DNA of 40,233 bases from a virus. Lineage: Duplodnaviria > Heunggongvirae > Uroviricota > Caudoviricetes. Positions 6,823-24,676 of this stretch are shown piece by piece. A program made the position numbers and the translations under genes. Location: positions 1 through 40,233 of the IMG/VR virus record IMGVR_UViG_2802429237_000003. The stretch is one strand, 5' to 3'. Under the pieces are notes generated by a model. It worked only from the letters and a program-made list of their open reading frames with translations. It had not been told where the DNA came from and made no database searches. Every line of letters starts with the position of its first letter. The first letter of the stretch is position 1.

Positions 6823-6823
6823 G

Positions 6824-6839: not shown

Positions 6840-6855
6840 CAGATGGTTTTGTTTC

Positions 6856-6884
6856 TTGACTTTCTTTGGTTTTGATTATTAAAC
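6856..6884 (+). promoter_or_regulatory. candidate P_R promoter (-35 TTGACT at 6856-6861) overlapping second operator copy GTTTTGATTATTAAAC (6869-6884)
   Basis: TTGACT followed 15-17 bp later by an A/T-rich -10-like hexamer (TATTAA), ~30 bp upstream of the cro-like start; operator repeat overlaps the -10 region. Confidence 0.4.
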
Positions 6885-6913
6885 TTTTGGCGTTCAGTTT
6901 TATGGAGCGACTC

Positions 6914-7565: not shown

Positions 7566-7588
7566 AAGCACTGTGTTCGGAGTTTTTT

Positions 7589-8536: not shown

Positions 8537-8576
8537 GTGTTAATTTCTGGTCATGAGGTAATTTTCAGGAGGGCTT

Positions 8577-8999
8577 GTGGCAAAAGTTTTTACACAAGAA
8601 GAGCGGGAAAAAATTAAAGGGCAGGTTGTTGAACTCGTACGCCAGAGTGGGCGCGAGACGTTACAACAACTGGAAACTAAAACTGGGGCAACAAGATATC
8701 TGATGAGCGTTCTGGCCAGAGAGCTGGTTGCCAGTGGCGATGTATACAACTCTGGTTACGGGTTATTCCCGTCTGAACAGGCGCGTAAGGACTGGCAAAA
8801 TGCCCGTAAAAAGCTCTCAAGGGCAAAGCCGAAGAAACCATCTGCGGTTGATCCGGACCTTATCTGGTCATTACCAGACGGAGAAATACGTCGTTACGAC
8901 AGGCGTTTGAACATAATCTGTCGCGAGTGCCGGAAGAGTGAGGTTATGCAGCGAGTGCTGGCGTTTTATCAGGGGAAATTTCAGGAGGTGATGCTGTGA
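8577..8999 (+). CDS. hypothetical protein (140 aa), replication-region
   Basis: ORF with GTG start and SD AGGAGG 6 nt upstream; in an operon-like run with overlapping downstream genes. Confidence 0.5.
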   Translation: MAKVFTQEEREKIKGQVVELVRQSGRETLQQLETKTGATRYLMSVLARELVASGDVYNSGYGLFPSEQARKDWQNARKKLSRAKPKKPSAVDPDLIWSLPDGEIRRYDRRLNIICRECRKSEVMQRVLAFYQGKFQEVML

Positions 9000-9250
9000 G
9001 CGAATCAAAATGTCAGGTTAATGGCAATCAGATAGAACCATGTGCGGCACTGGCAAAGTCCCTTGAGCATGATGCTGAATACACGACGCGAAAAGGTCTG
9101 CTGATATACAAAATCTGGAATGAGAGTTTAACTCGCGGTCCTGATTTGGTGATGTTGCGTTCCGGTGAATTTTCTAAATTACCAGTGCGGGTTTCATTTT
9201 GTCCGTTCTGTGGTGAAAGTCTGAAAACGTGGGAGAACAGAAATGAATGA
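8996..9250 (+). CDS. hypothetical protein with C-terminal CPFCG motif (84 aa)
   Basis: GTG start overlapping the upstream stop; translationally coupled chain. Confidence 0.4.
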   Translation: MSESKCQVNGNQIEPCAALAKSLEHDAEYTTRKGLLIYKIWNESLTRGPDLVMLRSGEFSKLPVRVSFCPFCGESLKTWENRNE

Positions 9251-9548
9251 AATTAGAGAAATACCAGTAGTACGTGATGAATATGGCTGCTGGACGCATC
9301 CTGAATATGAAAAATTCTGTGATGGTAGAGAACTTATTTCAACGGAAGAGTTTAACGCCTGGATGGAGGAAAATAATCTTCAATGGACCATCAGAACTAT
9401 GGATGAAGATGATTTTAATCTGGACGCGGATGGTCCCGATATTGCCTCCTGGAAACCGGAGCGCCCGGAAGGTGAAGGCTGGTTCATTGGTTCCATTCAT
9501 GACACTGAAGATGGTCCTGTTTGTGTATGGCTGAGAAATAAGGCTTAA
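9243..9548 (+). CDS. hypothetical acidic protein (101 aa)
   Basis: ATG overlaps the upstream stop (ATGAATGA); protein-like composition. Confidence 0.5.
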   Translation: MNEIREIPVVRDEYGCWTHPEYEKFCDGRELISTEEFNAWMEENNLQWTIRTMDEDDFNLDADGPDIASWKPERPEGEGWFIGSIHDTEDGPVCVWLRNKA

Positions 9549-9681
9549 GCATAAAGGCGATAAACCACCTGACAACAAAACACTGAAAATTTAAATCAGA
9601 AGTGAATTTTATTAAATCCTTAACCGGAGGGATTTCTGCACCCTCAGAACATCAGGAGGCCGCCCGAAAGGGCGGTAATGA

Positions 9682-9900
9682 ATGGTCACATTATTCAGAA
9701 AAAAGTATCCGCGAAAGAGTAGAACAACAGAATTCCTGTTTCTCATTCTGTTTATCGTGTTGATGATACCGATATCCCCGTTAATCCTGGTTTGGATAAT
9801 CGGAAAAATAATTGAGCCAGTTATTGAATTGTATAACGACGTGGTATGGGCGTCGTTCAACACACTGCACAATAAAATTAATCCGTATAAGGAAAACTGA
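9682..9900 (+). CDS. small basic-N-terminus single-pass membrane protein (72 aa)
   Basis: Hydrophobic stretch FLFLILFIVLMIPISPLILVWIIG after KKYPRKSR; AT-rich; preceded by two hairpins and an AGGAGG; stop is 2 nt before the next start. Confidence 0.4.
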   Translation: MVTLFRKKYPRKSRTTEFLFLILFIVLMIPISPLILVWIIGKIIEPVIELYNDVVWASFNTLHNKINPYKEN

Positions 9901-9901
9901 A

Positions 9902-10165
9902 ATGGCAACTTTGACAAAAAAAGAACAGGCATGGTTGAACGAATTACAGGACGTTCTTGATCGCTGTCCATCACCGAAAAAAATTGGTTTTTACACCATT
10001 GGCGATAAAAACATTTACCTGTATGACCTACGCCGCATGGATGAAATCATGGAGGCTCTTGATAATCGTTCGTCAATGGATTGGTGTGTTGCTGTTTATG
10101 ATATGAATGCCGGATTTGATGAAAAGATTCTGTTCCCCTCGTCAGTTGAAAGCACTGCGGGTTAA
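9902..10165 (+). CDS. hypothetical protein (87 aa)
   Basis: Internal ATG of ORF 9812..10165 with AAGGA SD; coupled to the upstream small gene. Confidence 0.5.
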   Translation: MATLTKKEQAWLNELQDVLDRCPSPKKIGFYTIGDKNIYLYDLRRMDEIMEALDNRSSMDWCVAVYDMNAGFDEKILFPSSVESTAG

Positions 10166-10175
10166 GGAGTAATAC

Positions 10176-10625
10176 ATGACCACTATTACCAAAGAACGCG
10201 CGGAGATTAAATCATTCATCACTGGTTTCCTGAGCGACCCGGCGCACGATAACCAATCCTCAGACAGCCTGCTTGCCAATGTGTTTCGTATCGCACAGGC
10301 ATCGCTGGAAGCAGAGCCGATAGCGTGGCGATATCGCTATGTGAAAAAAGGCATTACGGACTCACAGGGGGAGCCGTGGGTTGGTGACTGGAAATATGTA
10401 CCGACAAAAGAGGATTGCAACGACAGACCGAACTATGAAATTCAGGCGTTATTCACTGCCCCGCCTGTGCCACTGACACCAGAAGGATTGATTAAAGCAG
10501 TGCGCTTCTATGAACAGGTTAAGCGTGAGAATCCGCCAGCCGAAACCGGAGCATGGAAAGACGCTATAGACTGGGTGCTCAAAGAGGCTTGCCAAGCTGT
10601 AAACATTGGCATTAAAGGAGAGTGA
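10176..10625 (+). CDS. hypothetical phage protein (149 aa), paralogous N-terminus to next gene
   Basis: SD AGGAG; N-terminus MTTITKE...ASLEAEPIAW resembles MTTFTDKE...TSLEAEPVSQ of the downstream gene. Confidence 0.55.
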   Translation: MTTITKERAEIKSFITGFLSDPAHDNQSSDSLLANVFRIAQASLEAEPIAWRYRYVKKGITDSQGEPWVGDWKYVPTKEDCNDRPNYEIQALFTAPPVPLTPEGLIKAVRFYEQVKRENPPAETGAWKDAIDWVLKEACQAVNIGIKGE

Positions 10626-10626
10626 T

Positions 10627-11181
10627 ATGACCACTTTCACCGACAAAGAACTGATTAAAGAAATCAAAGAGCGCATAGGCAGCCTGGATGTGCGGGACAA
10701 TATTGAGCGCCGGGCATATGAAATTGTACTGACATCGCTGGAAGCCGAACCTGTAAGCCAGACTTACAACTTGCCAGAATTAATCGAAGGCATGGAAGTT
10801 TCCATTGATGTAAGCACTTGTGATGCTGATTTAGGTAATCGCTATTTCGGCACCGTCACCGAGGCGTTAGAACTTGATACAGCCAAGAATGGTTACATCC
10901 TCCTGGTTCAGGACGCAGAGCCAAACTTCGATGTAAATGGCAACTCTCCGGTAACTCCGGATGGTTGGATAAGCTGTAGTGAGCGAATGCCTGAAAAGGG
11001 CCAGAACGTGCTTATTTCGGTGAATTTTGATAGCTCTCTGGTTGAACCGCTAATATGCTCCGCACGCTATACAGGAAGCACCTTTCGGCGCGGAGATGCA
11101 ACGATTAAACCGGGTAATGGTATTGAGCAGGCAACTCACTGGATGCCGTTACCGGAACCACCGCAGGAGGTGAACAGATGA
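10627..11181 (+). CDS. DUF551-like phage protein (184 aa)
   Basis: C-terminal GWISCSERMPEKGQNVLI ... HWMPLPEPP resembles the DUF551 signature common in lambdoid nin regions; SD AGGAGAG. Confidence 0.55.
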   Translation: MTTFTDKELIKEIKERIGSLDVRDNIERRAYEIVLTSLEAEPVSQTYNLPELIEGMEVSIDVSTCDADLGNRYFGTVTEALELDTAKNGYILLVQDAEPNFDVNGNSPVTPDGWISCSERMPEKGQNVLISVNFDSSLVEPLICSARYTGSTFRRGDATIKPGNGIEQATHWMPLPEPPQEVNR

Positions 11182-11573
11182 AAAATGAAACCGACAATGT
11201 TATCACCCTGGTGCAACCAAAATCAGAGGAAGAAGGGCTTCTCAACGTTGTGATAACCGACAGAAAAAGCGGCGAGCAAAAATGCTGTCAGCATATTCGT
11301 ACAACAATTTCAGAAGTGAATCGTACGATTACCTGCAAACGGTGTGGATTAGCTTTAGATCCGTTCGAGTTTATTCTCGACCGTGCGAGAAACGGTAAAA
11401 ACATCGTGTCTGAGATTAAATCACTCTATGCAAAGCGGGATGCTCTTCGTGAAGCTGTGGCAAAACTTGAACGTGAAGAGAAAAACGCCAAAGCCCGGTT
11501 GCGAGCAGCCAGGACAGCAATACTGTATGCGGAAAATGACCTTAAAAATATTGAGCAGGAGGTGAGTCGATGA
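11178..11573 (+). CDS. hypothetical protein with CxxC..CxxC zinc ribbon and C-terminal coiled coil (131 aa)
   Basis: ATG overlaps upstream stop; CCQH...CKRCG motif. Confidence 0.5.
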   Translation: MKNETDNVITLVQPKSEEEGLLNVVITDRKSGEQKCCQHIRTTISEVNRTITCKRCGLALDPFEFILDRARNGKNIVSEIKSLYAKRDALREAVAKLEREEKNAKARLRAARTAILYAENDLKNIEQEVSR

Positions 11574-11737
11574 CCTGGCCTGAAGCATTCACAACGGTAG
11601 GGATTGCAATGGCGGGGTGGTGGTTACCTGAATATGTGGAATAGTTGAACAATCTAATCAGGGGGGATGTGGATTTGTGGTCTGAGTGATTTGTTTTGTT
11701 AACCATGATAGCAAAGAAAGCCTGATTTTTTGCTTGG

Positions 11738-11766
11738 TTGACTAATGCTACCTGCAAGGTAAACTT
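11738..11766 (+). promoter_or_regulatory. candidate sigma70 promoter of the AT-rich two-gene cassette (TTGACT, 16-bp spacer, TAAACT)
   Basis: -35/-10-like hexamers ~45 bp upstream of the cassette start codon, inside a 230-bp noncoding gap. Confidence 0.35.
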
Positions 11767-11810
11767 AACTTAGCCTATCAAAGTGGGCGAACACTCACGT
11801 GGGGAATTGT

Positions 11811-12014
11811 ATGCCTAAAAATTATGCATTTAAAAAGGTATTAGAGCCTGTTTATGAGCAAATTGTATCGGCGGAGACTCTGTTATCTTTTGGTGGCGAA
11901 CGGATGGAAAATATCGAACGTATTGAGTTTCGGGCGCCAAAGATTGGCGATGATAACTTTGGCAAGTTTAAAATTCGTTACAAAACGCCAATGTTATGTG
12001 AGGTAGGGCGATGA
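11811..12014 (+). CDS. cassette gene 1: small soluble protein of unknown function (67 aa)
   Basis: ATG with GGGGA SD 7 nt upstream; stop overlaps the start of gene 2 (ATGA); AT-rich relative to flanking phage genes. Confidence 0.5.
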   Translation: MPKNYAFKKVLEPVYEQIVSAETLLSFGGERMENIERIEFRAPKIGDDNFGKFKIRYKTPMLCEVGR

Positions 12015-12472
12015 CAGGAGCGGATGCGTCTCAAAATAGACGTAGCGACGAAGCAAAAGAGAGAAAGCCGAATCCTATAGTCGCTATAGAAAGATTCGTA
12101 GAAGTCCAGACAAAAGAAATTGAGCTTAAAAAGAAGGAACTTGATTTTAAGACTCAAGAACTTGAAATAAGAAAGCAAGAGATTGATAGTAACAAGGAAA
12201 TAGCACTTAAGTCCATAGAGGCGCAGAAAGAGGATCGGGCAACACAGGCCACTATTTTTAGTAGAGTTGAAGTTAAAAAGGTCTATTTTAAATATATTGT
12301 AACAATTTGTGTTACATTGGTTGTGATGGTGTCGATGTTCACAGGAAATGCCCAGTACGCAATTGAGCTTGCGAAGATTGGTGGTGGGGTTCTTGCAGGA
12401 TATCTTGCTGGTATGTATAAGGGAAAATCAGATCAGCTGGAAAAGAATTCATCACAAAAGGCTGAAGATTGA
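12011..12472 (+). CDS. cassette gene 2: charged coiled-coil protein with C-terminal transmembrane segments (153 aa)
   Basis: N-terminal K/E-rich repeat-like region (KEIELKKKELDFKTQELEIRKQEID), C-terminal hydrophobic stretches IVTICVTLVVMVSMF and GGGVLAGYLAGMY; followed by an intrinsic terminator. Confidence 0.55.
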   Translation: MTGADASQNRRSDEAKERKPNPIVAIERFVEVQTKEIELKKKELDFKTQELEIRKQEIDSNKEIALKSIEAQKEDRATQATIFSRVEVKKVYFKYIVTICVTLVVMVSMFTGNAQYAIELAKIGGGVLAGYLAGMYKGKSDQLEKNSSQKAED

Positions 12473-12510
12473 AATTGGTACCTCCGGTTTGTTTTTGTGC
12501 ATTTTTTACG

Positions 12511-12536
12511 TGCCCGCCTTGGCGGGTTTTGTTTTT
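12511..12536 (+). terminator. rho-independent terminator after the two-gene cassette
   Basis: GCCCGCC..GGCGGG stem followed by TTTTGTTTTT. Confidence 0.6.
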
Positions 12537-12609
12537 CCCCTGTATTCTGGTTTACAATTCGCACGTCAGCCTGAACACCTGACACCTGCTGCGCCAGCAG
12601 AGAAAACCG

Positions 12610-12882
12610 ATGGCGCACAATACCAAACATCACAATTCTGATACCGACCTTGCCAGCAGGCACGGGCGGCGTTCTCATACATTCAAATATGACTGGTACC
12701 AGCATGACCCCTGCACTGAAGAACAGGCCGAATGGCTGATTCATAACTACCGCAGACGTGGGTATGAGTTTAAGAAAGCCCTCAGCCTCGATTATCGTCA
12801 CTGGATAATCTACGTCAGGCTCCCTTACTCCGAACGCCCACCGCGTCCGTCCCGCACATTCCAGCAACGCATCTGGAGGTAA
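12610..12882 (+). CDS. hypothetical basic protein (90 aa)
   Basis: ORF with protein-like composition directly upstream of the DUF968 gene; weak SD; start uncertain. Confidence 0.4.
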   Translation: MAHNTKHHNSDTDLASRHGRRSHTFKYDWYQHDPCTEEQAEWLIHNYRRRGYEFKKALSLDYRHWIIYVRLPYSERPPRPSRTFQQRIWR

Positions 12883-12883
12883 C

Positions 12884-13933
12884 GTGCGGGTATTGCTTCG
12901 ACCTGTTCCGGTACCGGAACTCGGGCTGGTGGTCTTTAAGCCTGGTCGTGAATCCATGCAGGTATTTCATAACCCTCGAGTACTGGTGGAGCCGGAACCG
13001 AAAAGCATGTGCAGTCTGCCGTCCGGAGTTGTTCCTGCCGTTCGTCAGCCGCTGGCGGAAGATAAATCATTGCTGCCATTTTTCAGCGACGAACGGGTGA
13101 TTCGTGCTGCCGGCGGCGCTGGTGCACTGTCTGACTGGCTCCTGCGTCATGTTAAATCCTGCCAGTGGCCTCATGGTGACTACCATCACAGTGAAACCGT
13201 CATACATCGTTACGGTACCGGCGCGATGGTGTTGTGCTGGCACTGCGACAACCAGCTGCGTGACCAGACCTCAGAATCACTTGAGCAACTTGCTCAACAA
13301 AACCTGACAGCATGGATGATTGACGTCATCCGTCACGCAATAAGCGGTGCGCAGGAGCGTGAATTATCGCTGGCTGAATTATCCTGGTGGGCTGTCTGCA
13401 ATCAGGTGGCGGACGCACTACCGGAGGTAGTATTACGTCGTTCTCTGGGGTTACGTGCGGAAAAAATTCACTCGGTGTACCGCGAAAGCGACATCATACC
13501 GGGAGAGCAGACAGCCACCAGCATACTGAAGCAGCGCACAAAAAATATTGCGCTACCACCTCACGCCCACCAGCAACAGAACCCACCACAGGAAAAGACG
13601 GTGGTAAGCATTGCCGTTGATCCGGAGTCTCCGGAATCTTTCATGAAGCGCCCTAAACGTCGCCGCTGGGTAAATGAGAAATACACGCGCTGGGTAAAGA
13701 CACAGCCGTGTGCGTGTTGTGGTAAGCCAGCCGACGATCCCCATCACCTGATTGGTCATGGTCAGGGCGGAATGGGGACAAAATCCCACGATATTTTCAC
13801 GCTACCGCTGTGCCGGGAGCATCACAACGAACTTCATGCGGATCCGCTGGCGTTCGAAGAAAAGCATGGTTCCCAGGTTGATTTAATTTTTCGTTTTCTT
13901 GATCACGCCTTTGCAACCGGCGTGCTCGGGTAA
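12884..13933 (+). CDS. DUF968 family protein (YdfU-like) with C-terminal HNH-like Cys/His cluster (349 aa)
   Basis: Size and CACCGKPADDPHHLIGHGQGG...LPLCREHHNELH C-terminal motif typical of lambdoid DUF968 proteins; precedes rusA. Confidence 0.65.
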   Translation: MRVLLRPVPVPELGLVVFKPGRESMQVFHNPRVLVEPEPKSMCSLPSGVVPAVRQPLAEDKSLLPFFSDERVIRAAGGAGALSDWLLRHVKSCQWPHGDYHHSETVIHRYGTGAMVLCWHCDNQLRDQTSESLEQLAQQNLTAWMIDVIRHAISGAQERELSLAELSWWAVCNQVADALPEVVLRRSLGLRAEKIHSVYRESDIIPGEQTATSILKQRTKNIALPPHAHQQQNPPQEKTVVSIAVDPESPESFMKRPKRRRWVNEKYTRWVKTQPCACCGKPADDPHHLIGHGQGGMGTKSHDIFTLPLCREHHNELHADPLAFEEKHGSQVDLIFRFLDHAFATGVLG

Positions 13934-13945
13934 AAGAGGTTACTG

Positions 13946-14305
13946 ATGCATATAGAGTTTGTTTTGCCTTACCCGCCGACGGTGAATACTTACTGGCGAC
14001 GTCGTGGCAGCACATATTTTATATCAAAAGCCGGTGAGCGTTATCGCCGTGATGTGGCACTTATTGTTCGCCAGCAGCAACTGAAATTAAACCTGTCCGG
14101 AAGGCTGGCGATAAAGATTATTGCAGAGCCACCGGATAAGCGCCGTCGTGATCTGGACAATATCCTGAAAGCACCGCTGGATGCGCTGACGCATGCGGGA
14201 CTGCTTATCGACGACGAGCAGTTTGATGAAATTAATATTGTGCGCGGTCAGCTTGTTCCTGGTGGGCGGTTGGGGGTAAAAATCACAGAACTGGAGTGCG
14301 CATGA
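13946..14305 (+). CDS. rusA: crossover junction endodeoxyribonuclease RusA (Holliday junction resolvase; 119 aa)
   Basis: Length and motifs (PPTVNTYWRR, DKRRRDLDNILKAPLDAL, GGRL..ITE) match the RusA family. Confidence 0.85.
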   Translation: MHIEFVLPYPPTVNTYWRRRGSTYFISKAGERYRRDVALIVRQQQLKLNLSGRLAIKIIAEPPDKRRRDLDNILKAPLDALTHAGLLIDDEQFDEINIVRGQLVPGGRLGVKITELECA

Positions 14306-14991
14306 ATAACCAGTATTTACAGTTTGTTCGTGAGCAACTCATGATTGCCACCGCCGATTTGAGTGGAGCAACAAAAGGGCAGCTTGAGGCCTGGCAGGAT
14401 AATGCCATGTTTGATACGGGGCGTTACAGGCGTAAAAAAATCCGGTACCGAGATGAGGTGACCGGAAAAATGATAACGCTGGATAATCCACCAATCCCGG
14501 GTAAACAATCGCTGGCAAAGGGGACGTCAATTCCTCTGGTAAGTCAGGTTGAGTTTTCGACATCATCATGGCGACGGGCGGTTCTGTCTCTTGAAGAACA
14601 TCATAAAGCCTGGTTGTTGTGGTGTTACGGCGGAAATATTTGCTGGGAGTATCAGATCGCGATAACACAGTGGGCGTGGAATGAATTTAACGCGCAATCT
14701 GGTACCAGAAAAATTGCGGAGAAAACACGGGAGCGCCTGAAAAAATTAATCTGGCTGGCGGCGCAGGATGTCAGGGGATGGGTAGCCGGGCATGAGAACT
14801 ACCAGCGACAGGAACTTGCCAGGCTGTGTGGAATTAAACCTGACAACTGGAGCCATAATTATGCGAACTACTGGCGTGAGATGTGCGACATTTTTAAGAA
14901 TCTTGATACAGAATCCTTGATTTGCACAGTGAAAATGAGAACACAACAAAAAGCGACCTTTTCGCGACGAGATGTTGCAAAAATCAATTAA
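14302..14991 (+). CDS. putative late-gene antitermination protein Q (229 aa)
   Basis: ATG overlaps rusA stop (ATGA); position between rusA and a promoter plus intrinsic terminator ~65 bp downstream is the canonical Q context; family not confirmed by motif. Confidence 0.55.
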   Translation: MNNQYLQFVREQLMIATADLSGATKGQLEAWQDNAMFDTGRYRRKKIRYRDEVTGKMITLDNPPIPGKQSLAKGTSIPLVSQVEFSTSSWRRAVLSLEEHHKAWLLWCYGGNICWEYQIAITQWAWNEFNAQSGTRKIAEKTRERLKKLIWLAAQDVRGWVAGHENYQRQELARLCGIKPDNWSHNYANYWREMCDIFKNLDTESLICTVKMRTQQKATFSRRDVAKIN

Positions 14992-15003
14992 ATCGCGTAC
15001 ATT
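14975..15003 (+). promoter_or_regulatory. candidate late promoter P_R' (TTGCAA, 17 bp, TACATT)
   Basis: Hexamers with 17-bp spacing overlapping the 3' end of the Q-like gene, ~55 bp upstream of the terminator hairpin. Confidence 0.35.
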
Positions 15004-15054
15004 TCGTGTAAATTTGATATTTTGCCGATTTTGTACGCGATGGCAAAGTAAGCA

Positions 15055-15080
15055 AGGCCCGCCGCTGAGCGGGTTTTTTT
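15055..15080 (+). terminator. rho-independent terminator (t_R'-like) downstream of the Q-like gene
   Basis: CCCGC(CGCTGA)GCGGG stem-loop followed by seven T. Confidence 0.65.
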
Positions 15081-15204
15081 ATGCCTGAAAAATGGTACAG
15101 AACATTAAACACGCTGGTGGTTGCGAATACTGGTCTTTCAGCTTGCTGGTTTTTTCGACAAGAGTTATTGGTATGTCACGTTAACCGGAATAAGGGAAAA
15201 AGAC

Positions 15205-15402
15205 ATGCTAAAACAGCAGGATATGACCGAAACCGCCAGAGTGGTGTTTAATGAATTAAGCGTCACCGAACCGGCGACCGTCGGGGAAATTGCGCAGAAT
15301 ACTTACCTTTCACGCGAACGCTGCCAGTTAATACTGACTCAGCTTGTCATGGCGGGTCTGGCAGATTATCAGTTCGGTTGTTACAGACGCCTTCCTCAGT
15401 GA
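15205..15402 (+). CDS. small putative DNA-binding protein (65 aa)
   Basis: Internal ATG of ORF 15121..15402 with AAGGGA SD; a possible HTH is suggested by composition only (ATVGEIAQNTYLSRERCQLIL). Confidence 0.4.
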   Translation: MLKQQDMTETARVVFNELSVTEPATVGEIAQNTYLSRERCQLILTQLVMAGLADYQFGCYRRLPQ

Positions 15403-15552
15403 AGGCTTTTTAATTTGTGGTAATGGGCGGCTGGTGGGTGTTAGCGGCACCTGCCAGCCATCTGCTCATGCGTTGGGGTCACAAGCAAACCTCAGGCCCA
15501 TCTGCTTTGCGCAAAAGCGGTATGAGCCTATCAGAGAAGTGCTTATTGATCT

Positions 15553-16599
15553 ATGGCTAATACTGTAAAAATATCCAGTTGTGAGTTAATCAACGCTGAT
15601 TGCCTGGAATTTATCCAGACCTTACCGGAAAACTCTGTCGATCTGATAGTCACAGACCCGCCATACTTTAAAGTGAAGCCCGAAGGCTGGGATAACCAGT
15701 GGAAGGGCGACGATGATTATCTGAAATGGCTGGACCAGTGTCTGGCGCAGTTCTGGCGGGTACTGAAGCCCGCCGGAAGTCTTTACCTGTTCTGTGGTCA
15801 TCGCCTGGCATCTGACACCGAAATCATGATGCGTGAGCGCTTTAATGTGCTGAACCACATTATCTGGGCGAAGCCGTCCGGGCGCTGGAACGGGTGCAAC
15901 AAGGAAAGCCTGCGGGCGTATTTTCCGGCAACAGAACGCATTCTGTTTGCAGAACATTATCAGGGGCCGTACCAGCCCAAAAATGACGGCTATGCGGCAA
16001 AGGGGCGCGAGCTAAAACAGCACGTCATGGCCCCGCTGATTTCTTACTTTCGTGATGCGCGTGAATCACTGGGAATAACGTCAAAACAGATAGCGGAAGC
16101 CACCGGAAAGAAAAACATGGCTTCGCACTGGTTTGGTACCAGTCAGTGGCAGTTGCCGAACGAAGGCGATTATCTGAAATTACAGGCGTTGTTTGCGCGT
16201 GTTGCAGCAGAAAAACATCAACGCGGGGAACTGGAAAAACCACACCACCAGCTGGTCAGCACATACAGTGAACTGAACCGGCAATATGCCAGCCTGCTGG
16301 AAGAGTACAAATCTTTACGGCGTTATTTTTCCGTATCGGCTGCCGTTCCGTATACGGATGTCTGGACGCACAAGCCCGTGCAGTATTATCCGGGCAAACA
16401 TCCCTGTGAAAAACCAGCCGATATGTTGCGCCAGATAATTACCGCCAGCAGTCGTCCGGGAGATTTGGTGGCTGATTTTTTTATGGGGTCAGGTTCCACA
16501 ATAAAGGCAGCATTGTCGCTCAGGCGTCGGGCTATTGGTGTGGAGCTGGAAGAAGAGAGATTTAATCAGACTGTGAAAGAAATAAAAAACTGCTGTTAA
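15553..16599 (+). CDS. DNA methyltransferase, beta-class amino-MTase (likely N6-adenine; 348 aa)
   Basis: DPPY motif IV near the N-terminus (VTDPPYF) and F-x-G-x-G motif I near the C-terminus (FFMGSGST): circularly permuted beta-class order; no adjacent restriction endonuclease gene. Confidence 0.85.
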   Translation: MANTVKISSCELINADCLEFIQTLPENSVDLIVTDPPYFKVKPEGWDNQWKGDDDYLKWLDQCLAQFWRVLKPAGSLYLFCGHRLASDTEIMMRERFNVLNHIIWAKPSGRWNGCNKESLRAYFPATERILFAEHYQGPYQPKNDGYAAKGRELKQHVMAPLISYFRDARESLGITSKQIAEATGKKNMASHWFGTSQWQLPNEGDYLKLQALFARVAAEKHQRGELEKPHHQLVSTYSELNRQYASLLEEYKSLRRYFSVSAAVPYTDVWTHKPVQYYPGKHPCEKPADMLRQIITASSRPGDLVADFFMGSGSTIKAALSLRRRAIGVELEEERFNQTVKEIKNCC

Positions 16600-16878
16600 T
16601 TTTTATGTTGGTGTTTTCTTTATTCTATAAAAACACAAAACATATACTTATATTTGCAGTAATTGACGTTATTTTTTGTTGAAAAAATATCTTGGCTTAT
16701 TAATATCCATTCCCGGTTCCGAGGGAGGATAGGGAAATAATGCATACGTGGTCGTTTCTTTTCCTGAGGAACCACTGACTAAGCTTTTTATCGTTGTGGC
16801 ACTGGCGCATTGTTTTTGGCGCGGAAACAGGAGCGCATGCTCATTCCGGGCTGTTATGGCCTCAGTGCTTATTTTTGG

Positions 16879-16954
16879 GCATCAGAATGACGCATTGTCG
16901 AAAAGAAGTAGCAGGATTTAGCGTCGAGAGGCTGATGATGCGTCATTCTGATGC
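16879..16954. repeat. perfect 17-bp inverted repeat GCATCAGAATGACGCAT / ATGCGTCATTCTGATGC with 42-nt spacer
   Basis: Arms at 16879-16895 and 16938-16954 are exact reverse complements; noncoding region. Confidence 0.8.
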
Positions 16955-17047
16955 TGTTGCAGATATAATTTGAGGTGTATCCCAGTGCGGGAGTGACCGG
17001 GAATATTTTACGCCGAAGGTCACAACATATTGCTTATTGAGGCAGGT

Positions 17048-17139
17048 GATATGTTTCGGGAGGCACCCGACACCTCAAACCTTATAATGATAGCGTGTTC
17101 TTTATAGCCATTAACCGCCGTGTCAGGCGGTTTTTTTTG
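17048..17139 (+). repeat. repeated noncoding module, copy 1 (conserved core TTTCGGGAGGCACCCGACACCTCA, then intrinsic terminator)
   Basis: 24-nt core at 17055-17078 identical to core at 17828-17851; CCGCC(GTGTCA)GGCGG + T8 at 17116-17139. Confidence 0.7.
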
Positions 17140-17293
17140 CGTTGTGTGCTGTGATATAAAAATATCATATTTAATAATTACCAGAGAAACAAATTTGTTT
17201 GTATGTTGTCGCATATGTGTTGATTGTGCGTAAAAAATTCACAAAAAATAAGAACAAAAAGATAAATTTACATAACTTAACTTGATGTGTTAT

Positions 17294-17321
17294 TGCTCCT
17301 GCACCATTTAACCGTATTATC
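17294..17321 (+). promoter_or_regulatory. candidate promoter for the tRNA pair (TTGCTC, 16 bp, TATTAT) with AT-rich upstream element
   Basis: Hexamers ~60 bp upstream of tRNA-Thr; preceded by ~150 bp of very AT-rich sequence. Confidence 0.35.
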
Positions 17322-17380
17322 GAAAGTGGTTCTGAGGGGGCACTTGTTCACCGATGATATTGATTCCCTGAAGAACCAAT

Positions 17381-17456
<76 letters not shown>

Positions 17457-17459
17457 TAT

Positions 17460-17534
<75 letters not shown>

Positions 17535-17820
17535 ACAGTAGACGAAATCTGGTTGTATTAGGCACTGACACATTGATATGTGGGGCGTTTTTCCTGATTC
17601 CTTACCGCGTCCTGTTCTGTAATATGTGATACAGGTTACAGTCCAGTGCCATTTTTTTACAATAATGGCATGGTGCATTGTCGGTGGAGATTTTGTATTT
17701 CCTGGCAGGGGCTGATGATGCACCATCCCGGTGTTGTAAATAACATCACAGAGGTGTTCCTCAGCGCGAGGGTGGTTTAAAGAGTCGGTTTAGCGGGAAA
17801 CCACAGTATCTGCTAACGGG

Positions 17821-17918
17821 TCAGGTATTTCGGGAGGCACCCGACACCTCAGTTTTACAACAATAAAAACAGCTTATATTTTGCATTGACCAACCGCCAC
17901 ACCAGGCGGTTTTTTTTT
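17821..17918 (+). repeat. repeated noncoding module, copy 2 (same 24-nt core, then intrinsic terminator)
   Basis: Core at 17828-17851; CCGCC(ACACCA)GGCGG + T9 at 17894-17918; two further terminator-like hairpins follow at ~17941-17962 and ~18041-18068. Confidence 0.7.
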
Positions 17919-18086
17919 ATTCACAATCCTGTTTCTTATGGCTCGCTACGGCGAGCTTTTTCATACCTGCGTCACGACTGGCGCTCATCAAATAACACCA
18001 GATAAAAGGCATTTGTGGGTGCCTTTGATGTGGTGTTGTTTTTTATGGGCCGCTGGTGGCCCTTTTTTATTTACAGGAGAAAAAGT

Positions 18087-18479
18087 ATGTCTGAACCCTT
18101 ATCCGGTTCCGGCACGGCTGCGGCGCTCGGCGGGGCGACGGTATTCGGGCTGTTTACCGGAACGGATTTCGGGATTGTGTTTGGTGCGTTCGCCGGGGCG
18201 TTATTTGTGGCAACGATGCCGCAGCAGCTTTCAGCCTGGCGTGTGGCGGCGCATTTTCTGGTGTCGTTCATTGTTGGCGTGCTGGGAGCGCGTGTGCTGT
18301 CAGCCTGGATAGCGGCAAAAACAGGTTATGACGGTACATCGGCAGATGCGCTGTGCGCGGTGCTTGTCGCGGTAGTGTCGGTGAAGATTCTGTCGTTCAT
18401 CCACCAGCAGGATATCGCATCACTGGTGTCCGGTCTGTTCTCCCGCCTGCGGGGCGGAGGAGGTGGCAATGTTAAGTAA
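18087..18479 (+). CDS. putative holin / lysis membrane protein (131 aa)
   Basis: Internal ATG of ORF 18015..18479 with AGGAG SD; multiple hydrophobic Gly/Ala-rich helices; first gene of the lysis cassette. Confidence 0.55.
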   Translation: MSEPLSGSGTAAALGGATVFGLFTGTDFGIVFGAFAGALFVATMPQQLSAWRVAAHFLVSFIVGVLGARVLSAWIAAKTGYDGTSADALCAVLVAVVSVKILSFIHQQDIASLVSGLFSRLRGGGGGNVK

Positions 18480-18747
18480 CCTTCCCGGCTTGCTGAATGT
18501 GGCGTTATGCACGGTTATTGTGCTGACGCTCTTTTTTTATCGTCGCCGTGATTCCAGACATAAACCGCTGATGTCATGGCTGGCCTGGCTGCTGATGCTG
18601 CTTTATGCCTTTGCACCTCTCAGCTATCTGTGCGGTCGCCCGTTAGCGGCGAACTGGCTGGCGGTGGGGCTTAATCTGCTGTTCTGCGTGTTGGTGATTC
18701 GCGCACGCGGGAACGTTTCAAAAATCTTTGTATTACGAAGGCGCTGA
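18469..18747 (+). CDS. putative holin/antiholin-type membrane protein (92 aa)
   Basis: ATG with GGAGGAGG SD; three predicted TM helices and a basic C-terminus (VLRRR); overlaps the upstream stop. Confidence 0.55.
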   Translation: MLSNLPGLLNVALCTVIVLTLFFYRRRDSRHKPLMSWLAWLLMLLYAFAPLSYLCGRPLAANWLAVGLNLLFCVLVIRARGNVSKIFVLRRR

Positions 18748-18748
18748 T

Positions 18749-19294
18749 ATGAAGTCGAAAGATGAAATTTTTGACGAAGTTCTGGGAAAAGAGGGCGGTT
18801 ACGTCAATCACCCGGATGATAAAGGCGGACCGACAAAATGGGGTATTACGGAAAAAGTCGCCCGCGCTCACGGATATCAGGGCGATATGCGTGACCTGAC
18901 ACGCGAACAGGCGCTGGAAATCCTTGAGGCGGATTACTGGTTCGGACCACGCTTTGATCAGGTGGCCGCATTATCCTCTGATATTGCTGCAGAGTTGTGT
19001 GATACCGGTGTGAATATGGGGCCGTCCGTAGCATCGAAAATGCTCCAACGCTGGCTGAACGTTTTCAACCTGCAAGGCAAATTGTTCCCGGATATGGACG
19101 CAGACGGGCGTATCGGCCCCCGCACGATTAATGCACTACGGACTTATCTGCAAAAACGCGGCAAAGACGGCGAACTGGTGATGCTGAAGGCGCTGAATTG
19201 CACGCAGGGCGACCGCTATCTGGAGCTGGCAGAAAAACGCGAGGCCAACGAGTCGTTTGTCTACGGCTGGATGAAAGAGCGCGTAGCAGTTTAA
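18749..19294 (+). CDS. endolysin, glycoside hydrolase family 108-like with C-terminal peptidoglycan-binding domain (181 aa)
   Basis: N-terminal EGGYVNHPDDKGGPTKWGIT resembles the GH108 signature; C-terminal region resembles a PG-binding domain; follows the holins. Confidence 0.8.
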   Translation: MKSKDEIFDEVLGKEGGYVNHPDDKGGPTKWGITEKVARAHGYQGDMRDLTREQALEILEADYWFGPRFDQVAALSSDIAAELCDTGVNMGPSVASKMLQRWLNVFNLQGKLFPDMDADGRIGPRTINALRTYLQKRGKDGELVMLKALNCTQGDRYLELAEKREANESFVYGWMKERVAV

Positions 19295-19394
19295 AAACTG
19301 ACGCTGAAGTGCTGAACACCCTCAACTCACGCAGGCTCTTTTCTGGGGTTACGATGAGTGAAAGTAAGGGGTACAGCATCAAGCATCAGATAGC

Positions 19395-19430
19395 AAAAAC
19401 CCCGGCTGCTGGAACAGTCCGGGGTTTTTA
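19395..19430 (+). terminator. rho-independent terminator after the endolysin gene
   Basis: AAAACCCCGG...CCGGGGTTTTT hairpin with T-run. Confidence 0.6.
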
Positions 19431-19520
19431 GTTTTCACGTCAAAGAGGAAATTGTGAGTAGTGAGTACGGAGAAAATCCTCGTGGGAAAGTATAAAAGAT
19501 TCTTTTTGAGGTTGTCCATT

Positions 19521-19634
19521 ATGAAAGGTATTGAAGTGGAAACTCCCGCGAGCCTTGATTTGACAAGGGCTGCGGCCTTTGCAATTCGCCTTGTGGCGGT
19601 CGCTGTTCTGATTTGGGCTGTGCGTTGGTGGTGA
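19521..19634 (+). CDS. small hydrophobic peptide (37 aa; below ORF-track cutoff)
   Basis: Hand-translated MKGIEVETPASLDLTRAAAFAIRLVAVAVLIWAVRWW; stop is 1 nt before the start of the lipoprotein gene. Confidence 0.3.
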   Translation: MKGIEVETPASLDLTRAAAFAIRLVAVAVLIWAVRWW

Positions 19635-19635
19635 T

Positions 19636-19818
19636 ATGAGCCGAAAACACTGGACACACAGAATGCCGCGAGCGGCGGCAAAATGGGCACTGGTAGCGAT
19701 ACTGGTGCCTTTTTTATTGGTGGGGTGCGTCAGCCTGGATAAGGCGCGCCAGCTTTTCGATACAGCTTCTCAGGTCTGCGAAATTGTTGATAGTGTCCGG
19801 CAGTGTATGCAGAACTGA
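19636..19818 (+). CDS. small lipoprotein (60 aa precursor; lipobox LLVGC; ~29-aa Cys-containing mature part)
   Basis: Signal peptide with lipobox L-L-V-G-C; mature part not proline-rich, so not a typical Rz1 o-spanin. Confidence 0.5.
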   Translation: MSRKHWTHRMPRAAAKWALVAILVPFLLVGCVSLDKARQLFDTASQVCEIVDSVRQCMQN

Positions 19819-19860
19819 CCGACGGTGAGAGCAGAATATTTTTTAGAGGAGCGAAATTCT

Positions 19861-20211
19861 ATGCCATCACAAATCCCTCGTGCATGCCGTAAGCGAGGCT
19901 GTGCAGGCACAACGACGGACAGTTCTGGCTACTGCGATAAGCATCGCGGCGAAGGTTGGACACAACATCAACGCGGACTGAGCCGCCACCAGCGTGGCTA
20001 TGGCTCGAAATGGGATGCCATACGTGCGCGCATACTGAAGCGTGATAATCATCTGTGTCAGAACTGCCTGCGCAATGGGATAGCCGTTGAAGCCAGAACT
20101 GTGGACCACATCATTCCGAAAGCTCATGGCGGTACGGATGCAGACGGTAATCTGCAGAGCCTGTGCTGGCCCTGCCACAAGGCGAAAACAGCGCGTGAAC
20201 GCATCAACTGA
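19861..20211 (+). CDS. HNH endonuclease, terminase-associated (116 aa)
   Basis: SD GAGGAG before ATG 19861; HNH motifs (DHIIPKAHGG...N...CWPCH); immediately upstream of the terminase genes. Confidence 0.8.
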   Translation: MPSQIPRACRKRGCAGTTTDSSGYCDKHRGEGWTQHQRGLSRHQRGYGSKWDAIRARILKRDNHLCQNCLRNGIAVEARTVDHIIPKAHGGTDADGNLQSLCWPCHKAKTARERIN

Positions 20212-20359
20212 TAATCGTTCTCATCTGTAAGGGAGGGGCGGGTCAAATCTCAGCAACCCTGGCTGCTCAGTACCGCCGCCTGACCCTTCCTCACATCGCC
20301 GCAGGTTCGAAAACTTTTTTTTGGGAATGTGATTAAACGATTGATAGGTAAAACCGATT

Positions 20360-20842
20360 ATGTCAGGACCCCCGAAAACCCCGCCACGCCTGCATTTGAT
20401 ACGAGGCAACCCCTCAAAACGCCCCGTTAAAGACTCAAAAAAAACCGCTAAAAAGGACGAAAAAGGTCTCCCTAAAATTCCGCAACATTTAGGGGCGCAG
20501 GGGAAGTACTGGTTCAGGCGAATGGCGGAAGAGCTGAATGCGGAAGGGATCATTTCTCAGCTTGATGCGCGTGCACTCGAGTTACTGGTGGAAGCCTACA
20601 CCGAATACCGGCATCACTGCGAAACACTTGATGCTGAGGGTTATACCTACCGCACGGAAACGCAGAACGGTGATGTGCTGATTAAGGCACACCCGGCTGC
20701 TGCGATGAAAGCGGATGCCTGGAAGCGGATCCGGGCGATGCTTGCAGAGTTTGGTATGTCACCGGCAAGCCGGGCGAAAGTAAATACCGCCGGACCGGAT
20801 GATGTTGATCCGCTGGCGGAACTTTTAAAAGCGAGAGACTGA
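20360..20842 (+). CDS. terminase small subunit (P27-type; 160 aa)
   Basis: Size, basic N-terminus and position directly upstream of, and overlapping, the terminase large subunit. Confidence 0.7.
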   Translation: MSGPPKTPPRLHLIRGNPSKRPVKDSKKTAKKDEKGLPKIPQHLGAQGKYWFRRMAEELNAEGIISQLDARALELLVEAYTEYRHHCETLDAEGYTYRTETQNGDVLIKAHPAAAMKADAWKRIRAMLAEFGMSPASRAKVNTAGPDDVDPLAELLKARD

Positions 20843-22599
20843 TGGCAAAAGTGGCTGACGGGATCCGCTACGCCGAACGTGTTGTTGCAGGAGAAATTGT
20901 CGCTGGCGAATTTGTCCGTCTGGCCTGCCAGCGTTTTCTTGATGATCTGAAGTACGGCGAAGAGCGGGGGATTTATTTCAGTGAACCCCGTGCGCAGCAC
21001 ATCCTGAATTTCTACAAATTTGTGCCCCATGTAAAAGGGGCGCTGGCTGGCCAGCCCATTGAATTGATGGACTGGCATGTATTTATCCTCATTAATATTT
21101 TTGGTTTTGTTATTCCGCTGGTGAATGAAGAGACCGGGGAAGTTGTCATGCGCAGCGATGGCAGCGGACGCCCGGTGATGGTGCGCCGGTTCCGGACGGC
21201 GTACAACGAAGTTGCCCGTAAAAACGCAAAATCAACCCTGTCATCGGGTATTGGTCTGTATATGACGGGGGCAGATGGTGAAGGCGGGGCTGAGGTGTAT
21301 TCAGCCGCAACCACGCGTGATCAGGCCAGAATCGTGTTTGAAGACGCCAAAAATATGGTCAGAAAAGCCCGGTCGACACTCGGGCGGTTGTTTGATTTCA
21401 ACAAGCTGGCGATTTACCAGGAGCAGAGCGCATCAAAATTTGAACCGCTTTCCTCGGATGCAAACAACCTGGACGGTCTGAACATCCACTGCGCCATTAT
21501 TGATGAGCTGCATGCGCATAAAACCCGTGACGTGTGGGACGTTCTGGAAACGGCAACCGGTGCCCGTCTGCAGTCCCTTTTATTTGGTATCACCACGGCA
21601 GGGTTTAACAAGGAAGGGATTTGTTACGAGCAACGCGATTACGCCATCAAGGTATTGCGTGGCTATAACAGCGACGTGGAGGGCGCGGTAAAAGACGACT
21701 CCTACTTTGCGATTATTTACACCCTCGATGAGGGAGATGATCCGTTTGATGAAACGGTCTGGCAGAAAGCGAATCCCGGACTGGGCATCTGTAAACGCTG
21801 GGATGATCTGCGTCGTCTGGCGAAAAAAGCGAAAGAACAGGTCTCTGCGCGGGTGAATTTTTTTACCAAACACATGAATGTGTGGGTAACAGCAGAGTCT
21901 GCCTGGATGGACATGATTAAGTGGGAGAAGTGCGAATACATTGCCCCACGACATGAGCTGAAAACGTATCCCATGTGGGTCGGCGTTGACCTTGCTCATA
22001 AGATTGATATCTGTGCGGCGGCAAAACTCTGGCGAACGGATAACGGGCATGTTCATGCCGATTTTAAATTCTGGCTTCCGGAAGGACGGCTGGAACGATG
22101 CTCGCGGCAGCAGGCAGAACTTTACCGGAAGTGGGCGGAGATGGATAAGCTCATCCTGACGGATGGTGATGTTATCGATCATGCTCAGATAAAAAGTGAC
22201 TTACTGGAATGGATTGGCGGTGAAAACCTCAGGGAACTGGGATTTGACCCGTGGAGTGCAATGCAGTTCAGTCTGACTCTGGCTGAAGAAGGGATACCGC
22301 TGGTGGAAGTTCCGCAGACGGTCCGCAATCTGTCAGAGGCCATGAAGGAAACGGAATCACTGGTCTATGCCGGGCGTTTCCATCACAGCAATCACCCGGT
22401 CATGAACTGGATGATGTCTAACGTTACGGTAAAACCGGACAAAAACGACAATATCTTCCCGAACAAATCCACGCCTGAAGCCAAAATCGACGGCCCTGTT
22501 GCGATGTTTACAGCAATGAGCCGGATGCTGGTCAATGGCGGTGAACCGGAGCCGGATCTGTCTGAACACCTGATTAGTGTTGGTATCCGCTCGCTTTAA
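20842..22599 (+). CDS. terminase large subunit (585 aa)
   Basis: Walker A-like VARKNAKST, conserved ATPase and nuclease regions of the Terminase_1 family; start overlaps the small-subunit stop. Confidence 0.9.
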
Positions 22600-22792
22600 C
22601 CGAGGGCATTATGTTTCTGATAATTCTCACGCCACTGGTGGGCGTGCTGGGGGCGCTTTTGCTGTCGTATGGCACATGGATGATTTATCCCCCGGCAGGT
22701 TTTGTTGTTGCCGGGGCACTATGTCTGTGCTGGTCGTGGCTGGTTGCGCGTTATCTCGATCGCGGTCACCGGGTCGCCTCCGGAGGTGAGTA

Positions 22793-24662: not shown

Positions 24663-24676
24663 CCAGGAGAAAAATA

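Follow-up and report, generated by a model that had tools for sequence, protein, structure and literature searches.

A probable late-operon module in a tailed-phage genome: an M.EcoGII-type orphan adenine methyltransferase behind a conserved, structured leader RNA

M.EcoGI and M.EcoGII, adenine methyltransferases carried by prophages of Escherichia coli O104:H4 C227-11, stay silent in lysogens and do harm when they are expressed (Murray et al. 2018, PMC5778455; PMC12707154). In vitro, M.EcoGII methylates up to 99% of deoxyadenosines and blocks many restriction enzymes (PMC5778455); it also binds and methylates RNA, its substrates including single-stranded DNA and DNA:RNA hybrids (PMC5778455, PMC11551740). 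Wild-type M.EcoGII is about 100-fold less active on RNA than on DNA (Table S3 of PMC11551740), the reconstructed ancestor Anc291 and the enzyme SUPREM act on DNA and RNA with no site preference, and an AlphaFold2 model in the same paper shows the target recognition domain (TRD) of the family as a helical bundle with a helix-turn-helix. In a methylome study of Shiga toxin-producing E. coli, homologues with 92 to 94% amino acid similarity were classed as nonspecific on the basis of REBASE and yielded no motif in lysogens (PMC6602927). Murray et al. name phage 1720a-02 as the carrier of a very similar methyltransferase, and a review already pairs Mom with M.EcoGII (PMC12707154). Although M.EcoGII is in wide use as a reagent to footprint chromatin and RNA, what it does in nature and how it is controlled are barely described. 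Here, we analyze a stretch of 40,233 nucleotides from a virus of the class Caudoviricetes (IMG/VR record IMGVR_UViG_2802429237_000003, positions 1 to 40,233; hereafter the window), in which a gene for a 65-aa protein, a gap of 150 nt, and a gene for a 348-aa methyltransferase resembling M.EcoGII follow one another on the + strand.

Window 15057 to 16599 is most likely the first cargo module of a lambdoid prophage late operon (Table 1). Its three parts are the gene of a small winged-helix protein, an untranslated, structured leader of about 165 nt in the mRNA, and the methyltransferase gene. In our preferred reading, to which we assign a probability of about 70%, the module would encode a hypermethylase that depends on Q, is throttled at translation, and modifies phage DNA ahead of packaging, thus providing broad anti-restriction. 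The first-pass annotation, made from the sequence alone, had put the two open reading frames (ORFs) at 15205 to 16599, exactly where they lie, and had suggested self-methylation against restriction during lytic growth, which we also judge the best reading of an orphan methyltransferase in a Q-dependent late unit. Put that way, the finding is ordinary, a known enzyme family in its usual place: the family is biochemically well known, and the module is already present, poorly annotated, in the sequenced phages phiP27 and 1720a-02. The part that we did not find described, in open-access papers or in Rfam 15, is a leader RNA located in the gap of 150 nt, together with the way it relates to the methyltransferase start codon; the earlier description of the upstream region was right about the small ORF and overlooked this conserved, structured RNA. 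The open-access literature yielded no report on the leader RNA or on the function of the small protein, and the parts of the M.EcoGII papers available to us (PMC5778455, PMC11551740) hold no mention of the Q-proximal position, a winged-helix neighbor, or a structured leader.

Judged by its sequence, the methyltransferase is almost certainly an intact member of the M.EcoGII family. It matches PF01555 (N6_N4_Mtase) over residues 29 to 341 with 151 bits against a cut-off of 26.7, and its motif order (catalytic motif IV, DPPY, toward the N terminus, then the TRD, then the S-adenosylmethionine [SAM]-binding motif I, FxGxG, toward the C terminus) is that of the beta class. Identity to M.EcoGII amounts to 86% over 347 residues and to 84.6% across the TRD (residues 160 to 237); the reference M.EcoGII sequence was machine-read from Supplementary Table S1 of PMC11551740, so that identity figures may be about 1% off. 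The DPPY and FMGSG motifs are intact, and at the 199 columns conserved in at least 95% of 114 homologues the enzyme deviates solely at Y278, where M.EcoGII also has a tyrosine; the motif disruption that the earlier annotation had raised as a possible objection is thus not seen. The enzyme of phage 1720a-02, encoded in the same module, is 93% identical to M.EcoGII. At the DNA level, the window gene is about 86% identical to the 1720a-02 gene annotated as "DNA methyl transferase" and 92% identical to phiP27 L24, and protein relatives with 57 to 90% identity are found across Enterobacterales and in Gilliamella.

Experimentally non-specific enzymes bracket the window methyltransferase, because its identity amounts to 86% with M.EcoGII, 88% with Anc291, and 73% with SUPREM. 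The enzyme is expected to methylate N6 of adenine in essentially any sequence context. That it is instead a site-specific orphan methyltransferase by which host or phage genes are marked epigenetically in the lysogen is highly improbable. Public annotation does call it a "site-specific DNA-methyltransferase," and regulatory orphan methyltransferases such as Dam and CcrM exist, but its TRD is 85 to 87% identical to those of enzymes shown to be non-specific, and the gene lies behind terminators and has no Shine-Dalgarno (SD) sequence. Moreover, the homologues with 92 to 94% similarity were classed as nonspecific and yielded no motif in lysogen methylomes (PMC6602927), and M.EcoGI and M.EcoGII are unexpressed in the lysogen (PMC5778455). 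Hence, epigenetic control of host genes in the lysogen, which had been offered as an alternative to anti-restriction, appears unlikely for an enzyme with lysogen-silent relatives and a gene behind two terminator hairpins. The absence of a new methylated motif on induction, earlier put forward as a sign against the idea, is unsound as a test, since an M.EcoGII-type enzyme at 86% identity would leave no discrete motif. With a non-specific enzyme, no such motif is expected, and total N6-methyladenine (m6A) per adenine is the relevant measure.

The position of the module speaks for late expression. Upstream lie the gene of antitermination protein Q and a tR'-like intrinsic terminator, whose hairpin and T-run are kept at this position in 35 loci; a Pfam scan places DUF968 and RusA genes 5' of Q, and the methyltransferase gene is followed by tRNA-Thr, tRNA-Gly, two holins, an endolysin, terminase, and head and tail genes. 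RefSeq annotates no restriction endonuclease in a 99.97%-identical prophage that covers window 5763 to 21869, nor in a 94%-identical locus that covers window 21000 to 40233. By these annotations the 40-kb window has no restriction enzyme gene, and, with the PF01555 match and the motif order, the description of the enzyme as an orphan beta-class methyltransferase is borne out. Both ORFs are real rather than chance, with 3098 homologues of the methyltransferase (E<=1e-10), 334 of the small protein, and an arrangement that is fixed across genera. The leader plus methyltransferase gene is matched in 1965 of 5426 complete E. coli genomes (36%), with up to six copies per genome.

Homology to phiP27, 1720a-02, and Stx2 phages begins with the first base of the terminator hairpin (window 15058; query position 159) and extends to near the 3' end of the methyltransferase gene. 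The mobile unit therefore consists of the terminator, the small gene, the spacer, and the methyltransferase gene. Pfam scanning of representatives of 44 loci from different species identified the upstream gene as a Q of PF06323, PF06530, PF03589, or DUF1133, and in the remaining loci of the 44 an inserted cargo gene sits between Q and the module. Being the first cargo after Q and its terminator is a family trait of the M.EcoGII-type module. This Q-proximal address fits the published lysogen silence of M.EcoGI and M.EcoGII and their harm on constitutive expression, and late, Q-dependent expression of the methyltransferase is very likely. Around the terminator, the stretch from pR' to the hairpin may give rise to a late-leader RNA that is short and terminated, of the sort described in Stx phages. 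In Salmonella, IsrK is a small prophage RNA associated with Q; weak isrK-like matches are seen at window 14977 to 15079 (+) and at positions 1215 to 1276 of another locus, L218 (E=0.97 and 0.036, respectively), both below the gathering score. A candidate third terminator at 15125 to 15165 was rejected, its stability being no better than that of shuffled sequence (z=+0.5).

The 150-nt spacer very probably forms a functional RNA structure. It is more conserved than the flanking coding DNA and is kept where the small gene is absent. The sense strand folds with a minimum free energy of -72 kcal/mol (z=-3.0), against -59 kcal/mol for the antisense strand, and the fold is specific to the sense strand because G-U pairs are frequent. 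A first alignment, made of 42 close sequences, could not decide the matter because conservation was too high; five pairs changed on both sides in it. A scan with a more distant methyltransferase brought in leaders that have wholly different yet complementary stems in P1, the long hairpin at the 5' side of the leader. A covariance model (R1) built from the first set matched 68 of 79 sources, on the sense strand only; it has a single match in the window and one in each locus, always on the methyltransferase strand. In the alignment of these 68 leaders, 93.2% of cells are paired, versus 32 to 42% when partners are slid, and 21 of 40 pairs change on both sides. Cells with both-side changes number 135, versus 25 +/- 4 in shuffles, and the covariation score is 0.211, compared to 0.118 for shuffled and 0.04 to 0.05 for slid partners.

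In P1, both-side changes affect 9 of 13 pairs in the upper stem and 3 of 6 in the base, and its stems in the raw sequences (GGCTGGTGGGTG/CACCCGGCCAGCC, GATCGGAGAGCG/CACTCTTCCGATC, GGCGTACATGATG/CATCGTGCACGCC) are hypervariable yet complementary. While the P1 stem varies freely, the loop and junction nucleotides of the leader are nearly invariant. In 114 of 121 viral-contig sites, the methyltransferase follows, at +129 to +131, a 20-mer from P1, ATGGGCGGCTGGTGGGTGTT; the leader element therefore belongs to the methyltransferase gene. Upstream of the leader proper, nearly all of 43 non-redundant leaders have a hairpin at the position of P0, with widely differing sequence; leaders of loci without the small gene are among them.

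We considered whether the spacer might instead code for protein and rejected this, since it shows 1-nt indels between close relatives and stops in all frames (stop codons occurring in most sequences), and the ORFs found in several frames are not conserved. At the 5' base of P1 (window 15423 to 15425), 66 of 67 leaders keep an AUG or, in five leaders, a GUG. In the window the AUG opens a 47-codon frame whose UAA (15556 to 15558) overlaps the methyltransferase start region, and in most relatives this frame stops after seven codons (MGGWWVL). A conserved leader peptide started there, whose tandem Trp codons recall trpL, was set aside as a weak option, with lengths from 7 to more than 45 codons and no SD sequence. 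As for known RNA families, Rfam 15 returned nothing at E<=10 on the 191-nt leader save two chance-level matches, and no match over the leader in a 3.5-kb scan or in seven divergent loci. Weak Trp/Leu-leader and isrK matches were rejected as leader families, as both sit on the tR' terminator, outside the leader.

How might such a structure act on the gene behind it? The methyltransferase start lacks a usable SD sequence: its duplex with the anti-SD is worth -2.9 kcal/mol, which is also the median over 62 leaders, compared to -5.3 kcal/mol for the small gene and -6.5 to -10.8 kcal/mol for RusA, DUF968, and portal. In helix P2, the 13 nt just 5' of the AUG pair with a segment 65 nt upstream, and in Gilliamella variants the P2-equivalent strand, AUGACC, contains the likely start codon. 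Throttled translation would suit the methyltransferase because the enzyme harms the cell. We rate the chances that P2 gates translation as even.

A bolder proposal, which we regard as doubtful, is that the leader is an undescribed class of cis-regulatory RNA, a factor-responsive switch that opens or closes P2 and would license translation of an otherwise lethal methyltransferase at the proper point in the lytic cycle. The signal, an equally tentative matter, could be the winged-helix protein, if it acts on RNA in the manner of Mu Com, the methyltransferase itself in autoregulation, SAM or S-adenosylhomocysteine, or a ribosome at the P1-base AUG/GUG. Near-invariant loops and junctions beside a free P1 stem are what aptamers and protein-binding sites look like, and a possible alternative helix, formed by the 3' base of P1 with the 5' strand of P2 (A4 columns 57 to 62 with 76 to 81), shows covariation at one pair, which is U-A in 47 sequences and C-G in 13. 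However, 70.7% of its cells are paired, its center is mostly unpaired, and its number of covarying pairs is at shuffle level. The nearly universal AUG/GUG would suit a ribosome-responsive switch, but the mini-ORF behind it varies in length as described above and has no SD sequence. RNA binding is known for some winged-helix domains, the small protein's structural matches include SelB, and M.EcoGII binds and methylates RNA; on the other hand, the leader is the same in loci without the winged-helix gene, no riboswitch family is matched, and binding by any factor is putative.

The small protein is a usual but dispensable neighbor of the methyltransferase. It falls into phrog_331, which is annotated as function unknown. 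Membership of the TrmB family (PF01978) was rejected, the match reaching 18 bits (E=0.0026), below the cut-off of 25.6; because of this score, the name "TrmB family" given by PGAP rests on a weak resemblance. Its AlphaFold2 model is an H-H-H-beta-beta winged helix with a best pLDDT (predicted local distance difference test) value of 86 (five models, 55 to 86), and Foldseek returned generic winged-helix matches only, namely, IclR, MarR, ArsR, O-methyltransferase N-terminal domains, and SelB. An m6A-reading winged helix like the DpnI C-terminal domain was unsupported, with no DpnI match in the Foldseek top 50. Two cysteines only are conserved (C40 and C59). The family is narrow, with 61 clusters at 50% identity in 1.8 billion representatives.

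Of 46 full-length genome loci, 35 have the small gene 5' of the methyltransferase gene, as do 108 of 121 viral-contig sites; the end of the small gene is 140 to 160 nt from the methyltransferase ATG (109 to 200 nt in a few loci). In about 10 to 20% of loci, unrelated cargo takes its place, and P0, the leader, and the methyltransferase are retained. The replacement cargo comprises an SDH-type ClpP-like serine protease (PF01972), a membrane protein of 220 to 231 aa without a Pfam match, and a 592-aa protein. Genome loci L010, L011, L046, L020, L026, and L033 show this swap between the Q terminator and P0; the swapped genes look like defense or moron genes at a hot spot. The reverse arrangement occurs in viral contigs L070, L108, L134, and L153, where an AT-rich segment, which contains a 237-aa ORF, stands in for the methyltransferase and the leader's 3' part. 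The replacement junction in these four contigs falls within hairpin P1; P0 and the small gene are kept.

The adjacency and the fixed spacing, with the predicted DNA-binding fold, might suggest that the small protein is a transcriptional controller of the methyltransferase, like the C proteins of restriction-modification (R-M) systems. We consider this improbable. The fold is a minimal winged helix rather than an Xre-type helix-turn-helix, and the Pfam scan gave no HTH_3-type match for the small protein; no restriction gene is present that would need delayed expression; read-through by Q-modified polymerase already accounts for methyltransferase transcription; and leader and methyltransferase persist without the small gene. 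The first-pass annotation had left a choice between a controller and an unrelated DNA-binding factor, of which the DNA-binding fold is upheld as a prediction and the controller of C-protein type is not.

A second view of the small protein, possible and better placed than the controller although we do not favor it, is that it is an autonomous moron (with its own weak promoter, gene, and P0 terminator) that has other DNA targets, is possibly expressed in the lysogen, and is independent of the methyltransferase. It is exchangeable for unrelated cargo at its slot with P0, leader, and methyltransferase staying behind, it persists in the four contigs in which the methyltransferase is replaced, it has a good SD sequence of its own, and P0 is terminator-like. 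It is also preceded by a strongly conserved block, 26 to 63 nt 5' of its ATG, which extends from Escherichia to Photorhabdus, Xenorhabdus, and Rosenbergiella and is conserved though the small protein falls to 37 to 40% identity. However, the family is narrow and always at this position in the loci examined, which implies some tie to the module or to the late-operon position, and P0 stays when other cargo replaces the small gene. Nor does the block resemble a sigma-70 promoter, with hexamers matching at 6 of 12 positions and no flag from the promoter scan; a sigma-54 promoter was likewise rejected for wrong spacing, and the block forms a weak hairpin only. The block might serve as a promoter that depends on an activator, as an operator, or as an RNA site.

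Taken together, the preferred reading of a throttled late hypermethylase would run as follows. In the lysogen, the module would be silent, late transcripts stopping at the post-Q terminator, with P0 as a second terminator-like hairpin before the methyltransferase; for the window enzyme, silence is suggested by these two upstream hairpins and the missing SD sequence. After induction, Q would render RNA polymerase terminator resistant and the module would be transcribed, as the layout suggests. The SD-less start and the pairing of P2 5' of the AUG would then throttle, gate, or delay translation. From the published enzymology of M.EcoGII, the methyltransferase would hypermethylate replicating phage DNA before packaging. 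Progeny would be shielded in the next host from most adenine-methylation-sensitive restriction, at the cost of sensitivity to m6A-dependent nucleases. Anti-restriction is probably the selected function, a claim we make less firmly than that of late expression. The enzyme might alternatively be a takeover or interference factor that methylates the host chromosome, competitor DNA, or RNA in lytic growth, and a non-specific enzyme indeed cannot distinguish phage from host DNA. M.EcoGII acts on single-stranded DNA, DNA:RNA hybrids, and RNA, and its constitutive expression harms the cell. This alternative nevertheless seems improbable to us, as the RNA activity of the wild-type enzyme is so far below its DNA activity and the late timing, just before packaging, suits progeny protection.

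Several observations weigh against the throttled hypermethylase. The 68-sequence alignment was fitted to the covariance model and favors the structure of that model, and RNAalifold applied de novo to it recovers P1 and P3 but not P2 or P4; P2, on which gating would depend, is the least secure helix. In Photorhabdus and Xenorhabdus relatives, P0 and P1 are kept and P2 to P4 are absent, and a Pasteurellaceae-like clade has an ordinary SD sequence and no leader, so gating is not essential to the enzyme family. On the side of the enzyme, we infer non-specificity from homology alone, and the AlphaFold2 model of the window methyltransferase is all-helical over residues 147 to 255 at low confidence (mean pLDDT 62), leaving the TRD fold unsupported. 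We found no report of in vivo hypermethylation of such phage DNA in the open-access literature. As for transcription, a sigma-70 scan gave no good match between 14992 and 15056; of the late operon described in the first-pass annotation, Q and the terminator upstream and the holins and terminase downstream are confirmed, and the late promoter itself is not pinned down.

Table 1. Features of the predicted module and its upstream neighbor (positions in the window)
Feature	Position	Strand	Basis and remarks
Antitermination protein Q gene	14302..14991	+	PF06323, E=8.9e-85; same name in RefSeq in the 99.97%-identical locus L001
tR'-like intrinsic terminator	15057..15080	+	GC-rich hairpin, then seven T; fold -14.2 kcal/mol
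Conserved 38-nt block 5' of the small gene, CTTGCTGG-N9-ACAAGAGTTATTGGTATGTCAC	15142..15179	+	At least 90% conserved, 35 distinct loci
Gene of 65-aa stand-alone protein, predicted winged helix	15205..15402	+	ATG to TGA; SD AAGGGA 8 nt upstream; phrog_331, E=1.4e-37; PGAP "TrmB family transcriptional regulator"
P0, terminator-like hairpin over the small-gene stop codon, then T-run	15389..15411	+	Terminator scan; -8.9 kcal/mol, z=-2.7
Probable structured leader of the methyltransferase mRNA (covariance-model extent)	15413..15567	+	Model R1, 138 bits, E=1.6e-31
P1, long hairpin: 6-bp base, internal loop, ~13-bp upper stem	15423..15469	+	-31.1 kcal/mol, z=-4.2
P2, 5' strand GGGUCACAAGCA	15476..15487	+	Pairs with 15540-15552; cells 90-93% paired, 4 pairs change on both sides
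P3/P4, stacked inner helices enclosed by P2	15495..15528	+	5/11 pairs change on both sides
P2, 3' strand UGCUUAUUGAUCU	15540..15552	+	Same helix; last base directly precedes the methyltransferase AUG
Gene of 348-aa predicted beta-class N6-adenine methyltransferase, M.EcoGII family	15553..16599	+	ATG to TAA; PF01555
Catalytic motif IV, DPPY (residues 35-38)	15655..15666	+	Aligned with M.EcoGII and PDB beta-class methyltransferases
SAM-binding motif I, FMGSG (residues 310-314)	16480..16494	+	Aligned with PDB beta-class methyltransferases

Beyond the module, the window holds two STnc100-like copies of about 200 nt each, at 16943 to 17140 and 17723 to 17922 (+), with scores of 36.0 and 29.9 bits against RF02076, below its gathering score of 47. 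They share blocks such as GGCTGATGATGC and TTTCGGGAGGCACCCGACACCTCA, end in terminator-like hairpins (17113 to 17132 and 17892 to 17911), and bracket tRNA-Thr(UGU) and tRNA-Gly(UCC) at the slot that holds stx or LT-II in related phages. The 99.97%-identical locus, in E. coli AH19B041 (NZ_CP196316.1), contains a 15.25-kb satellite-like element (L001 26971 to 42220) that splits the large terminase gene. The insertion point corresponds to window 21856 to 21869; the window lacks the insertion, and its terL ORF is intact at 20842 to 22599. Genes of the element encode an integrase, regulators, BRO-N, an Icd-like protein, a DUF927 primase, SSB, and PerC, and it has its own capsid, protease, portal, connector, HNH, TerS, and TerL genes. 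Window 4678 to 5762 is the sole stretch of 1 to 21869 without a counterpart in AH19B041, the rest being 97 to 99.97% identical; by sequence comparison it is a local module swap in the early-left region.

These results give the M.EcoGII family a fixed address in lambdoid prophages as the first cargo after Q, in many Shiga toxin (Stx) and heat-labile enterotoxin (LT-II) phages just 5' of the toxin genes, and the module is relevant to the question of how Stx phages might get past restriction when moving from strain to strain. The leader offers a handle on how a phage silences a genome-wide, cell-damaging methylase until it is needed. If it should prove to be a switch, it would represent a new class of regulatory RNA present in about a third of E. 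coli genomes and in prophages across Enterobacterales.

Among described enzymes, M.EcoGI and M.EcoGII share with the window methyltransferase the beta layout, DPPY, FxGxG, and, by prediction, a helical TRD. M.EcoGII has 349 aa and the window enzyme 348; both are prophage-borne and orphan, and M.EcoGII is reported to be silent in the lysogen. The two differ by 47 substitutions, 12 of them in the 78-residue TRD, and we infer activity of the window allele from this likeness. The solved beta-class methyltransferases (M.BceJIV-like 8URK/9C3U, M.RsrI, CcrM, and M.MboIIA) align in the catalytic and SAM-binding halves with E=1e-23 to 1e-15. Unlike the window enzyme as predicted, they are site-specific, and they have no counterpart to its central part of about 165 residues (about 115 to 280, including the TRD). 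A search of the PDB by sequence gave no M.EcoGII-like chain, the matches lying only in the two catalytic halves of site-specific beta-class enzymes. The Dam-like orphan enzymes of phages belong to a different class, whereas the window methyltransferase is predicted to have no recognition site.

At the level of the module, the closest relatives are phiP27 (Stx2e; L23-L24), 1720a-02, and many Stx2a, Stx2c, Stx2d, and LT-IIb phages, which carry the same module at 86 to 92% nucleotide identity, placed between Q and the slot for tRNAs and toxin genes. In phiP27 and 1720a-02, it is flanked by Q and the stx genes, phiP27 having intervening tRNAs; in SerU-LTIIb, tRNAs follow. Whereas the Stx and LT-II phages carry stx or LT-II downstream, the window has only two tRNAs, flanked by STnc100-like elements. 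The Q allele also differs, being of PF06323 in the window and of another type ("Q-like" or "antitermination protein Q") in phiP27 and 1720a-02. Annotation of the module in these two phages is limited to "hypothetical" or "TrmB family" and "DNA methylase." With the C proteins of type II R-M systems, the small protein shares its size, a predicted DNA-binding fold, and a place just 5' of a modification gene; it differs from them in having a winged helix instead of an Xre-type helix-turn-helix, and the locus has no restriction gene and no identified C-box.

The nearest parallel in logic is com-mom of phage Mu, which performs a late, toxic, low-specificity adenine modification, gives broad anti-restriction, and is silent in the lysogen. 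Mu Com, an RNA-binding protein, is a zinc finger with four cysteines; Mom does not belong to the SAM methyltransferases; and transcription is controlled via Dam, OxyR, and C. There is no homology between the two systems, and the present one has a winged helix with two conserved cysteines and transcription via Q; our analysis gave no evidence that the window small protein would act on the leader as Com does on RNA. Both have a small upstream gene (about 62 to 65 aa) and a late, toxic modifier whose start is buried in mRNA structure, the methyltransferase start region being held in helix P2 as in the Mu arrangement, which makes the resemblance a functional analogy.

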